A stretch of 64,000 bases of DNA from Candidatus Oxydemutatoraceae bacterium (lineage in GTDB: Bacteria > Pseudomonadota > Gammaproteobacteria > Poriferisulfidales > Oxydemutatoraceae): assembly GCA_965219575.1 (NCBI GenBank), contig OZ244779.1, positions 2,284,769 to 2,348,768 on the forward strand. The letters run 5' to 3'. The notes below the pieces were generated by a model. The model made no database searches, was not told the DNA's origin, and saw only the letters and a list, made by a program, of their open reading frames with translations. Shown piece by piece: positions 30,229-46,797 of the stretch (position 1 is its first letter; every line of letters starts with the position of its first letter). Both the position numbers and the translations under genes were made by a program.

Positions 30229-30526
30229 GAGGCTGTTGAAAAAATACTGTTCCGCAAAATTGCAACCGCTTGCACCATTGAATTTACGATAACCACCGAG
30301 TCGTAGGGGCAGACCTGTGTGTCTGCCCTTAAGTATCACTCTGCACGACACCAACCGCTTGCGCCAACAAATAATGGTTTCCATAATACTAATGGGTGAA
30401 CGCGTTAATCGTGCAAACATGATACGTTTCGGGCGGACATGCAAGTCCGCCCCTACGGCGGTTTGCAAATGTTCATGGCGCACAGCGATTGGGTTTGAGC
30501 AATGCCCATACTTTTTCAACAGCCCC
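30229..30526. mobile_element. ~298-bp MITE carrying an inverted pair of GTAG REPs (REPIN-like)
   Basis: gaggctgttgaaaaaa ... ctttttcaacagcccc; REPs at 30303..30328 and 30431..30456. Confidence 0.82.
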
Positions 30527-42936: not shown

Positions 42937-43260
42937 TTATTCGTAAGTCGGCATGCTAGGGTCTATATCTTTAGCCCACGCATCGATGCCACCTTTGAGG
43001 TTGATTACTTTTTTGAATCCATGTTTCTCCATATACAATCCTGCCGCACGACTACGTATGCCGTGATGACAAATGACGACTATTTCGGCATCTCGATTTA
43101 ATTTACCTATCTGCTCCGGCAGCTCCGACATCGGTATCAACTCGGAATCGGGCAAATGCACGATATCGTATTCCCACTGCTCGCGTACATCTATCAATAC
43201 GGGCGGTTTATTTGCTTCGCCGATATAAGTTTTCAGTTCTTTAGGATATAGTTCGTTCAT
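42937..43260 (-). CDS. Rhodanese-like sulfurtransferase
   Basis: IDVREQWE, CHHGIRS, NLKGGIDAW. Confidence 0.92.
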   Translation of the reverse strand: MNELYPKELKTYIGEANKPPVLIDVREQWEYDIVHLPDSELIPMSELPEQIGKLNRDAEIVVICHHGIRSRAAGLYMEKHGFKKVINLKGGIDAWAKDIDPSMPTYE

Positions 43261-43332
43261 AAATTAAAAAGTATATTTTAACCATAAATTAATAAATCGA
43301 TACGATGTTTATTCAACCGCAGTGTAAGCCAC

Positions 43333-43454
43333 AAATAGAACCGCCGAGTGAAACCGCCGAGTGAACCGGTAGGTCAATCGGCGTCACGCTCTACAAAATA
43401 TAAACATGGGGCTGATGAAAAAGTATCCACGAACCGTAGGGGCGGACTAGCATG
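43333..43454. repeat. R3 hairpin with a 13-bp stutter, MITE left end (43408) and left half of the REP hit by IS110
   Basis: aaccgccgagtga x2; ggggctgatgaaaaagt; gtaggggcggactagcaTG. Confidence 0.8.
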
Positions 43455-43524
43455 ATGCCTTATTAAAAATCAAGTCATTTTATTCATTTTTTATCTCCGT
43501 TTTATATTTTTCCTGAGTATCGAT

Positions 43525-44526
43525 TTAGGACGCAGATGCGCAACAATAATTCGGGTCAAACGGCTTCCTGTATCTGAGTATCCCGTAAATAATACGTGCC
43601 AGCTTATGGGCGCAAGCAACAATAATCTGCTTTTTAGTTAACTCCGGACGCCGCCGACTTAATTGGTCGGCAAAGGCACGGATGATTGGGTTATGAACCC
43701 GTGCCGAGAGTGCCGCCATAAACAGCAGGGTGCGCAGTTCGGCATCGCCCATTTTAGAGATATGCGCCTTCGCCTCGTAGTTGCCGGACTGCCGGTGCCT
43801 TGGGTTGAGACCGACATAGACTGCGAATTGCTCTGCGTTATCAAATGTCTTATCATTGAAAACAGCACACAGGGCAATCGCTGTCTGAGTGCCGATGCCG
43901 GTAATGGAACACAGCAACTGCTCAAGCTCTGCGAGTTGCTCGTCTTGAGCGATAATTTGCTCCATTTCGGCATCCTGCTTAGCAATCTGTTTGTCAAAGT
44001 ATCTCAGGTTCTCAGCTGCTCGTTTTTTTTGCCTTGCATCGCATAAGGTTTTCATACAATTACTTAACCCGGTATGATCTTTGACTAATTGCCTGCGCAC
44101 TTTTCGTGCATCTCTCAAGGCGAGTGCAGTCGGCGACGGCATTTGCCAATCTTTACCGTCAACAGCGAATGCGAACAGTGCGATGAGCCGCGCATCATCG
44201 CGATCGGTTTTATTGTGCATACCAAGCGATTGGCGGAAGCTGGCAACCTGCGCCGGTTTGACAATCCTAATCGGATGTTGCGCCAGATAGCCGGCTTTGC
44301 ACAGGGCGAACTCAAAACCGCCGGTGGCTTCAACACAGATGCGACAGTGCGGTGCGCAGTGTTTGCTAGCCCAAGCTAACAGCTGCTTAATGCCTTTAGC
44401 ATCATTGCTAAATTGTGCCTCGGCAAAACTATTATCGGTGAATAATAGAGCGGCCTCTAAAGTGTCTTTAGAGACATCCACGCCGATTATGGCAGGGTGT
44501 TTGTTTTCCATAATAATATCCTCCAT
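43525..44526 (-). CDS. IS110 DEDD recombinase/transposase
   Basis: IIGVDVSK, CVEATG, KTDRDDA (DEDD); GIG..TA; RQSG serine motif; CAHKLARI. Confidence 0.96.
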   Translation of the reverse strand: MEDIIMENKHPAIIGVDVSKDTLEAALLFTDNSFAEAQFSNDAKGIKQLLAWASKHCAPHCRICVEATGGFEFALCKAGYLAQHPIRIVKPAQVASFRQSLGMHNKTDRDDARLIALFAFAVDGKDWQMPSPTALALRDARKVRRQLVKDHTGLSNCMKTLCDARQKKRAAENLRYFDKQIAKQDAEMEQIIAQDEQLAELEQLLCSITGIGTQTAIALCAVFNDKTFDNAEQFAVYVGLNPRHRQSGNYEAKAHISKMGDAELRTLLFMAALSARVHNPIIRAFADQLSRRRPELTKKQIIVACAHKLARIIYGILRYRKPFDPNYCCASAS

Positions 44527-44569
44527 TATGGTTGTTCAGTGAATAAAATACTCGGTAGCCAGTTCAGGA

Positions 44570-44765
44570 AAGTATGACTACGCCGCCCACACAGGTAAAT
44601 ACGAGATCTAAAGTCTCAAGCTGCCTTCCGAGCTCTATAGTCATAGCGCCGGAGGAGTGCTTTTCATGCTAACAGGCTTTAATGCCTCGTCCGTCCTGCG
44701 GCGTGTCTCCTCCGACTTCCTAGGTACTGCAACTACCTAAGCATTTATCTTATATAAATAAGCTA
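44570..44765 (-). ncRNA. Predicted IS110 bridge RNA
   Basis: 5' hairpin 44721..44739; target loop closed by ggaggag/ctcctcc with guides at 44688..44696 and 44665..44671; donor loop closed by tatgacta/tagtcata with guides at 44619..44627 and 44592..44597; RNA ends approximate. Confidence 0.85.
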
Positions 44766-44781
44766 GGGTTTAATATACCTG

Positions 44782-44870
44782 TCCGCCCGTAGCGCGTTGG
44801 TCGGCACGATTTATACATTCATTCATCCAATTTATGGAAACCAAAACCATACGGCGCAAGCGGTTGGGTT
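44782..44870. repeat. Right half of the interrupted REP and MITE spacer; no right TIR visible
   Basis: tccgcccgt...tttatacattcattcatccaatttatggaaacc...ggcgcaagcggtt. Confidence 0.8.
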
Positions 44871-44925
44871 TGCCCTCATAGATTGAAATGTTTAAGCCTA
44901 TATCTTGCACATAAACCGGCATTAG

Positions 44926-46797
<1,872 letters not shown>

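Follow-up and report, generated by a model that had tools for sequence, protein, structure and literature searches.

A CA-core IS110-group insertion sequence with a predicted bridge RNA aimed at a REP-like hairpin in a Candidatus Oxydemutatoraceae bacterium

The element described here lies in a 64,000-nucleotide stretch of genomic DNA from a Candidatus Oxydemutatoraceae bacterium (contig OZ244779.1; the whole stretch is termed the window), and its closest described relatives are insertion sequences of the IS110 family. For that family, bridge RNAs, targeting of repetitive extragenic palindromic (REP) elements, junction promoters, handshake guides, natural retargeting and target stem-loops have already been published (e.g. 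PMC11208160, PMC11208158, PMC11187229; statements about earlier work refer throughout to the available portions of the sources cited). In the published model, a promoter is reconstituted on excision of the element (PMC11208160). By definition, a handshake guide consists of the two bases that lie 3′ of a right guide and pair with positions 6-7 of the non-cognate DNA after strand exchange (PMC11208158). Natural reprogramming among relatives has also been reported for the seekRNA elements (PMC11187229). The crossover dinucleotide, or core, is CT for IS621, ISCro4/IS622 and ISPpu10 and AG for ISPpu9, and the engineered IS621 cores AT, GT and TT alter the first core base only (PMC11208160). Window positions 43453-44781, read on the minus strand, hold a 1327-bp insertion sequence of the IS110 group. 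We consider it highly probable, judging from sequence comparisons, that this element moves by bridge-RNA-guided recombination aimed at a REP-like hairpin of its host, with CA as its core.

An earlier reading made from the letters of the window alone (the sequence-only reading) had proposed a complete, likely active recombinase of this kind at 43436-44790. The element does lie inside that interval, which in addition takes in 9 and 17 nt of flanking REP sequence that are not part of it. On the minus strand, the left junction reads GGGCGGA (44788-44782), CA (44781-44780) and then GGTAT, and the right junction reads AAGGCAT (43461-43455), CA (43454-43453), TGCTA (43452-43448) and GTCCGCCC (43447-43440). 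CA is the one sequence that the two junctions share, which fixes the 2-bp core without ambiguity; removal of the element leaves a hairpin whose stem is 8 bp and whose loop is 6 nt long. The target GGGCGGA-CA-TGCTA and the circle-junction donor AAGGCAT-CA-GGTAT agree base for base with those that the sequence-only reading had given. The parts of the element and its immediate flanks are as follows.

44782..44788, minus strand: left target, GGGCGGA, the first 7 nt of the 8-nt REP-like left stem; the flank is identical at 7/7 host copies
44780..44781, minus strand: left CA core (crossover dinucleotide), whose C is the last base of the REP left stem
44512..44779, minus strand: left non-coding end, 268 nt, encoding the putative bridge RNA, with invariant stems and variable loop segments
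43525..44511, minus strand: recombinase gene, 328 amino acids plus stop, with DEDD_Tnp_IS110 and Transposase_20 domains
43455..43524, minus strand: right non-coding end, 70 nt, terminating in the left donor AAGGCAT
43453..43454, minus strand: right copy of the CA core
43436..43452, minus strand: right target TGCTA, right REP stem GTCCGCCC and CTAC; TGCTA plus the core A makes up the whole 6-nt loop

With 268 nt at the left and 70 nt at the right, the longer non-coding end lies upstream of the gene, as in the published criterion for the IS110 group (PMC11208160). Terminal inverted repeats are absent; subterminal repeats were not searched for, and an ATA...TAT pair that flanks the donor was noted by eye only.

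The full open frame of the recombinase runs from 43525 to 44526 on the minus strand. Its true start is probably the MENK... ATG at 44511, which would give a protein of 328 residues, because the relatives begin at this methionine and have a stop codon just upstream of it. The protein carries both domains expected of an IS110-group member, DEDD_Tnp_IS110 (PF01548; E = 3.4e-21, 76.1 bits, cut-off 29) and Transposase_20 (PF02371; E = 1.8e-22, 79.9 bits, cut-off 21.3), as well as the catalytic D-E-D-D/Ser set. Specifically, residues 8-321 align with the recombinase of the solved IS621 structure (8wt6; E = 3.2e-44) and also match ISCro4 (E = 3.8e-41). Residues D12, E61, D103, D106 and S242 stand opposite D11, E60, D102, D105 and S241 of IS621 and are invariant in six orthologues; this numbering allows for two extra N-terminal residues in the 8wt6 chain, deduced from the native start of the Escherichia coli IS621 copy. 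A search of 5.8 billion proteins placed the recombinase in a tight cluster (P0001-P0019) at 49-98% identity, all derived from metagenome-assembled genomes (MAGs), beyond which identity is at most 37%. Identity to IS621-family proteins is about 33% (tblastn).

The host genome (G000) is a single 2.37-Mb contig that is 98.9% complete, and it holds seven full copies including that of the window. Three of the others belong to the window's subtype (two at 99-100% identity and one at 98%, all with open frames) and three are 80-82% identical to it. The sequence-only reading had suggested checking whether other genomic copies sit in the same REP position. All seven copies do occupy the same CA of the same hairpin, with GGGCGGA-CA on the left and CA-TGC(T/A)A-GTCCGCCC on the right. 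A scan of public genomes with an alignment of the six orthologues returned 30 loci, 29 of them in three Candidatus Porisulfidus MAGs of the same genus as the host (G001, G003 and G004). We examined 36 loci in total (7 from the host and 29 from relatives), of which 33 are complete as judged by their end motifs, whereas L064-L066 lack a full element. CA is present at both ends in 33/33 complete elements, drawn from four genomes of one genus, and 31 of these 33 lie at the stem/loop border of a REP-like hairpin. Insertion is thus site specific, with one short core shared by both junctions.

The remaining two elements, L050 (G004) and L060 (G001), have an unusual arrangement. Upstream of a full element, each carries the start of a left end (53 nt and 77 nt, respectively) that stops at an internal CA; this partial left end runs straight into the complete element, which is followed by the normal right half of the REP. 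These arrangements appear to have arisen when a donor junction recombined with a poor pseudo-target within another copy. Because both aberrant junctions also fall at CA, they support CA as the crossover core.

Two further rearrangements were observed among the copies. Host copy c5 (G000:C1:1384818-1386170, L005) is chimeric: its first 200 nt, which comprise the RNA module and the left tip, are identical at 200/200 positions to the window subfamily (c1-type), and the remainder is a c6/c7-type body at 94-100% identity per 100 nt. Its insertion site, CATGCTA, fits its RNA module and not its recombinase type. In G003, protein matches at 298055-300202 and 764087-766234 of contig C1 are split (residues 1-236 and 234-333) by about 1.1 kb, as if both copies had been interrupted by another insertion.

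The target is a hairpin with the character of a REP element, that is, a short imperfect palindrome present in hundreds of copies. About 300 such hairpins are found in the 2.37 Mb of the host genome, and copies with the exact stem number 204. The left target plus the C of the core forms the left stem, and the A of the core plus the right target forms the entire loop. Loop sequences vary among the hairpins (ATGTTA 59, ACACAG 52, ATGCAA 46, ATGCTA 38, ATGCCA 37, ATATAA 33, ATACAA 17, and rarer others). Empty exact target 22-mers number 34 in the host genome, and the version with an ATGCAA loop is found empty 40 times. In the consensus of the 38 ATGCTA-loop copies, conservation extends over about 100 nt on the left side and about 80 nt on the right and includes a 13-bp inverted repeat; the hairpin thus forms the middle of a larger, modular repeat. 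This composite intergenic repeat measures approximately 150-200 nt.

REPs are associated with RAYT genes, which encode a Y1 transposase. The CTAC beside the stem resembles the GTAG of classical REPs. No PF01797 match, and hence no Y1/RAYT gene, was found in the 98.9% complete host genome. The sequence-only reading had placed the target on a miniature inverted-repeat transposable element. Such elements are defined units of transposon origin with terminal inverted repeats and target-site duplications, and the 13-bp inverted repeat of the composite repeat does not by itself establish one.

The 64-kb window contains 12 further REP-like hairpins, all unoccupied (e.g. at 1394, 8710, 12015, 29243, 30432, 38054 and 46898). 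The hairpin at 1394 has the exact ATGCTA loop targeted by the window's element, and those at 30432 and 38054 have the ATGCAA loop of the second subfamily. Also, long tandem arrays of GGGCGGAC hairpins with the loop ATATGA, spaced at about 134-214 nt, occur at G004:C2:362579-380423; none of these is occupied.

The left non-coding end is predicted to fold into a bridge RNA. Both a single-sequence fold and a consensus fold of 14 sequences place the guide pairs in internal loops around small apical hairpins. Both internal loops proposed by the sequence-only reading are therefore retained; the single 5′ hairpin that it drew is replaced by two, both upstream of the guide loops. The predicted features, in the order in which they would be transcribed, are these.

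44749..44762, minus strand: 5′ hairpin 1, 5 bp, all A-U but for a closing C-G (consensus fold)
44719..44741, minus strand: 5′ hairpin 2, 8 bp, with the clade's one fully compensatory change (A-U to G-C in L044)
44648..44716, minus strand: target-binding stem-loop with a basal stem of 10 bp, an internal loop and AGGC..GCCU as its apical hairpin (from the folds)
44688..44696, minus strand: left target guide (LTG), GGACGGACG, in the same sense as left target plus core, which would pair with the bottom strand
44665..44671, minus strand: right target guide (RTG), UAGCAUG, a 7/7 complement of core plus right target (CATGCTA)
44663..44664, minus strand: target-loop handshake bases AA, the first of which is complementary to donor T7 but not to target A7
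44573..44645, minus strand: donor-binding stem-loop with stems of 9 bp and 5 bp, an internal loop and an apical hairpin (from the folds)
44620..44627, minus strand: left donor guide (LDG), AAGGCAGC, matching left donor plus C at 7/8
44592..44597, minus strand: right donor guide (RDG), UACCUG, a 6/6 complement of CAGGTA at the left tip of the element
44590..44591, minus strand: donor-loop handshake bases UG, of which U pairs with target A7 and not with donor T7

Loop 1 matches both target strands and loop 2 both donor strands, and the matches overlap the core, except that position 9 of the left guides is a wobble or a mismatch in most variants. Across the nine positions of the LTG in the window copy, there are seven Watson-Crick pairs, one G.T wobble (position 9) and one A.C mismatch. 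The four guides and their matches (7/9, 7/7, 7/8 and 6/6) had been recognized correctly by the sequence-only reading, as had the bases after the right guides, A and U, which pair only after exchange. This handshake holds at position 7 for both loops of the window copy; the second handshake bases (A and G, position 6) pair with neither DNA.

The significance of these matches was assessed with 50,000 mononucleotide shuffles of the left end. Single guides arise with appreciable frequency (LTG with at least 7/9 in 26% of shuffles, RTG with 7/7 in 1.8%, LDG with at least 7/8 in 9.5% and RDG with 6/6 in 5.0%), whereas all four guides in the correct order were found in 0/50,000. A chance origin of the guides is excluded. 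Furthermore, 14 distinct left ends have invariant stems, and the columns that vary among them are clustered within four short segments, which are the guides.

If the four segments are guides, they should change with the sequences they read. The RTG makes seven Watson-Crick pairs with core plus right target in 26/33 elements, six plus one G.U/T pair in 3/33, and has one mismatch in 4/33. Elements with the RTG UAGCAUG occupy CATGCTA sites in four host copies and L044, and host copy c4, with the same guide, lies in a CATGTTA site and so has one G.T pair. UUGCAUG accompanies CATGCAA sites (c6, c7, L039 and L041), UAACAUG accompanies CATGTTA sites in 17 elements of G001 and G004, and UGGUAUG accompanies CATATCA or CATGCCA sites with one wobble. 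The LTG reads GGACGGAC(G/A) where the REP stem is GGGCGGAC; in G001 and G004, where the stem is GGGAGGGC, it reads CGAGGGCU or GAGAGGAUU (GAGGGC-type).

The donor guides follow the element's own ends. The RDG is UACCUG with the tip CAGGTA, and UAUCUG (6/6) or CAUCUG (5/6) with the tip CAGATA; overall it matches at 6/6 in 27/33 elements and at 5/6 in 6/33. The LDG is AAGGCAGC (7/8) in most elements and reads AAGGCATC/AAGGCAUC (8/8) in three, L039, L041 and L047. The mismatch of the 7/8 form is located at donor position 7, and the corresponding left-donor position of IS621 is reported to tolerate mismatches (PMC11208160).

The hairpins available in each genome provide a control for specificity. 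Hairpins of the GGGAGGGC type number 0 in G000, 0 in G003, 156 in G001 and 131 in G004, and those of the GGGCGGAC type number 204, 24, 23 and 95 in G000, G003, G001 and G004, respectively. Among the 17 elements of G004, 16 lie in hairpins of the GGGAGGG/GAGAGGG type, which their LTG resembles, one lies inside another copy, and the GGGCGGAC type is occupied by none. In all, four RTG types, three LTG types and two states of right donor and RDG were found to covary, within a small set of close relatives. These alignments make natural reprogramming of the guides apparent.

The ends of the element also contain the two halves of a candidate promoter.

44772..44777, minus strand: −10 box TATATT, 2 nt after the core, which would form a promoter only in the circle, together with the −35 box of the right end
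43468..43473, minus strand: −35 box TTGATT, ending 13 nt before the core, which leaves a 17-nt spacer across the joined ends

When right and left ends are joined, TTGATT or TTGACT, a 17-nt spacer and TATATT appear in 33/33 elements, with 9-10 of 12 consensus matches. At the integrated left junction of the window copy, the best promoter score is 7/12.

These features suggest the following mechanism. The DEDD/Ser recombinase would excise the element as a circle, and joining of the right end to the left end would put the −35 box 17 nt from the −10 box. The junction promoter would then transcribe a bridge RNA of about 190 nt from the left end, followed by the recombinase gene; this RNA is predicted to begin near 44765 and to end near 44573. 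The donor loop of this RNA would hold the circle junction AAGGCAT-CA-GGTA and the target loop the REP-like hairpin GGGCGGA-CA-TGCTA. In either loop, the bottom strand to the left of the core would be bound by the 5′ guide, and the top strand, beginning at the core and continuing to its right, by the 3′ guide. Strand exchange would take place at the CA core, and insertion would be favoured because the single nucleotide that follows a right guide has a partner in the incoming strand only. The element is probably intact and recently active, because copies of its subtype are 98-100% identical and have open frames. We infer RNA production, circle formation and present activity of the window copy from sequence; the open frame, the invariant catalytic residues and the near identity of subtype copies fit the earlier description of the element as complete and likely active.

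Several observations weigh against this reading. No circle junction (left tip back to right tip) was seen in the contigs of four runs, where rare forms drop out and stretches without coverage are uninformative, and no RNA run with the sequence is among the 24 sequencing runs listed, all of them assembled contigs. The fold is modestly better than that of shuffled sequences (z = −1.9), and covariation in the stems is minimal (1/52 pairs fully compensatory) because the clade is shallow. An Rfam scan of 43300-44950 with E values up to 1 returned no family. The left guides are imperfect: the LTG of the window copy has an A.C mismatch, and that of the G004 subfamily, the most prolific with 17 copies, makes only five Watson-Crick pairs and one wobble in nine positions. 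The second core base is left unpaired by either left guide in most variants, with a G.T wobble, U.T or similar at this position and a true pair in the L039 type only. Because the REP is palindromic, the likeness of the LTG to the left stem fits pairing with the bottom strand and pairing with the top-strand right stem equally well. The donor-loop handshake of L044 begins with a G that does not pair with target position 7 and could wobble with its own donor. The relatives come from four genomes of one genus and hence are not independent. Finally, a covariance model termed R1 (target and donor loops of 11 distinct left ends of the clade, 149 positions) gave E = 0.27 on the left end of IS621, with a mis-registered alignment; we rejected this result as evidence either way.

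One assembled joint resembles an excision product, in that it skips 1327 nt (43452 to 44780, with a side of 21 nt and two shared letters). We rejected it as excision at this locus. It most likely stems from an empty hairpin elsewhere, because its sides are purely REP sequence.

The alternative that survives best, although we regard it as improbable, grants that the family is of the bridge-RNA type and holds that the window copy and its near-identical sisters are immobile, being recent fossils or copies spread by recombination between carrier repeats. The failure to see a circle junction or a locus-specific excision product in the contigs of the four runs would fit such copies, as would the mismatches in the LTG and at position 7 of the LDG. 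The seven host copies, moreover, all share one genome strand, a pattern for which transposition by itself gives no reason. Against immobility stand the open frames, the intact catalytic residues and the 98-100% identity of subtype copies, and the mismatch at position 7 is of the kind that IS621 tolerates. In addition, flanks beyond about 100 nt are unrelated between copies, which argues that the copies are separate insertions.

Replication-strand bias was considered as the cause of the shared strand and rejected, since the copies span 1.45 Mb of the 2.37-Mb genome and empty hairpins occur on both strands; those with the ATGCTA loop number 16 on the plus strand and 18 on the minus strand.

Far less probable is recognition of the REP hairpin by the protein itself. 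The left end would then be a mere 5′ leader, and its similarity to the target would come from a captured REP or from gene conversion. The LTG followed by the RTG does read like one strand of a REP with a hairpin inserted between its halves, and a target stem-loop is reported as an additional determinant for ISPpu10 (10.64898/2026.03.19.712850). Such an origin is hard to reconcile with the donor loop, which matches and covaries with the element's own, non-REP tips, or with guides that occupy loop positions homologous to those of CT-core elements. The four RTG variants, furthermore, each lie in the matching loop although other loop variants are abundant in the same genome, and RNA is reported to be necessary for IS621 and ISEc21 (PMC11208160; PMC11187229). 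Mere resemblance by chance in an ordinary IS110 untranslated region, to which the single-guide rates of the LTG (26%) and LDG (9.5%) might lend some credit, has next to no probability and is effectively refuted by the absence of all four ordered guides from 50,000 shuffles and by compensatory changes at several guide positions across subfamilies.

The preferred reading, guided recombination at REP-like hairpins, differs from published cases chiefly in the core. The sequence-only reading had contrasted a CA core with the CT of IS621, and this contrast stands: CT is found at none of the 33 complete elements, all of which have CA, as do the two aberrant junctions. No natural CA core with an IS110 bridge RNA was found in a literature search, although the boundary tables of Durrant et al. 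may list CA-core elements. In the available text of PMC11208160, PMC11208158, PMC13626964, 10.1101/2025.05.14.653916, PMC13604230, PMC11187229 and 10.64898/2026.08.14.744561, CT is the only natural core mentioned and the engineered cores are AT, GT and TT, or GT; the words 'core' and 'dinucleotide' are absent from the text of 10.1101/2025.10.25.684509. The points of interest are the CA core and its asymmetric reading by the guides; we claim no priority for CA. A broader proposal, which we advance tentatively and consider rather doubtful as a whole, is that this isolated lineage (at most 37% identity outside its cluster) moved its core from CT to CA by changing the two guide ends that read the top strand alone (AG to UG), and that its reading of the REP is sensitive to structure.

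If this proposal is true, pairing of the bottom strand at the second core base would be dispensable in the lineage, and the recombinase would cleave after A. A natural CA-core recombinase would widen the sites open to bridge editing and would be a candidate for engineering at sites poorly reached by CT-core systems. The target loop could read either the two strands of a duplex or one extruded strand continuously, with the RTG on the loop and the LTG on the right stem. The family offers a natural experiment on bridge-RNA programming, in which one scaffold carries four RTGs and three LTGs that follow local REP variants within one genus. For the host, which its genus name suggests is a sponge-associated uncultured sulfur bacterium, the guides would explain which of hundreds of REP hairpins can be hit, with the 34 and 40 perfect empty sites still left for the two host guide types.

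The surroundings of the element and a related fragment nearby deserve mention. The spacer that contains the element, 43261-44931, is bounded on one side by a rhodanese-like gene (42937-43260, minus strand) and on the other by a thiC-like gene (44932-46797, plus strand), whose start is about 150 nt away from the element; the identities of both genes come from a reading of their translations only. Read-through from the element into the co-oriented rhodanese-like gene is possible. Approximately 4 kb before the start of the window, at G000:C1:2280555-2280725 (L069:1501-1671), there is a solo fragment of the bridge-RNA scaffold. It comprises 5′ hairpin 2 and, topped by the same apical hairpin, the stem of the target loop, together with other loop bases and an extra 3′ hairpin; a donor loop is absent. 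Preceded by a TATAAT box, the fragment is separated by about 200 nt from a SIMPL/DUF541-like gene downstream. A syntenic counterpart in G003 is 85% identical and has one compensatory change in a stem, and R1 matches the fragment with E = 8e-8 in G000 and E = 0.0098 in G003. This fragment may be a fossil left end that now serves as a promoter or leader.

The seekRNA elements (ISEc21, of the IS110 type, and members of IS1111; Siddiquee et al. 2024, PMC11187229) use a non-coding RNA with short matches to both strands of the target; they belong to a different subfamily and are likened to the present element by description only. Certain other IS110-family loci of related genomes (the G030 and G022 pairs) were set aside for reading the core, as they have subterminal inverted repeats and look IS1111-type, and no alignment was obtained for the locus pairs L033/L017 and L018/L032. 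ISPpu10 and ISPpu9 of Pseudomonas putida are IS110-family elements that, as here, insert into REPs at a fixed dinucleotide (10.64898/2026.03.19.712850; PMC12288879). For ISPpu10, which has a CT core, a target stem-loop formed by a 5′ extension pairing with the left target is reported to add specificity (10.64898/2026.03.19.712850). ISPpu9 has an AG core (PMC12288879), whereas the core of the present element is CA, placed where the stem meets the loop, and its right target is the loop itself.

At the level of RNA, a match outside the clade lies in Legionella adelaidensis. The sequence-only reading had proposed folding and a covariance model as a check; both folds give the predicted loops, and R1 reaches the Legionella IS110 left end, though not that of IS621. 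This match covers all 149 positions (28.9 bits, E = 1.4e-6), and a weaker one is found in the left end of a Ca. Paracaedimonas element (E = 0.0014). The Legionella plasmid copies (L082 and L083, annotated 'IS110 family transposase') share about 33% protein identity with the window's recombinase and have a similar basal stem (GGAGGAGA...) and apical hairpin (AGGC..GCCU). In contrast, they have a CT core and IS621-like donor halves, and their left target is the 3′ arm of a hairpin where that of the window's element is the 5′ arm (by eye). Where the right guides read the core, the aligned bases are AG in both Legionella guides and UG in both guides of this clade, the change expected for a CT versus a CA core. 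The Legionella left donor guide ends in C-U, as in this clade. In the Ca. Paracaedimonas plasmid element (L084), the right end downstream of the ORF, as judged from a single copy, appears to read ACAGTAT followed by CA, not CT, and the donor loop carries ACAGUAUCU.

The architecture is that of IS621 (Durrant et al. 2024, PMC11208160; Hiraizumi et al. 2024, PMC11208158), as the sequence-only reading had recognized from the target loop, the donor loop and the handshake bases. The two recombinases share both of their domains and align over the full length, including the catalytic D-E-D-D and Ser residues, and both elements have a long left end and a short right end, with a 5′ stem-loop followed by the target loop and then the donor loop. 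In both, the 5′ guides (8-9 nt) are of top-strand sense, the 3′ guides are complementary to that strand, both kinds overlap the core, and the handshake bases lie directly 3′ of the right guides. The E. coli copy of IS621 (left ATCAGGC-CT-TGTAT, right ACAGTAT-CT-ACG) also shows, by eye, the same 13+2+2 promoter spacing, and its target is likewise a REP element. Right guides measure 6-7 nt here and 4-7 nt in PMC11208160, and the natural RTG is 7 nt here versus 4 nt in IS621. The two elements differ in their proteins (about 33% identity), in their cores (CA here, CT in IS621), in the ends of their right guides (UG here, AG in IS621) and in their donor halves, which are AAGGCAT/GGTAT here and ACAGTAT/TGTAT in IS621. 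Unlike in IS621, the left guides of the present element are mostly unpaired with the second core base, and its 14-nt target corresponds to the entire left stem and loop of a hairpin.

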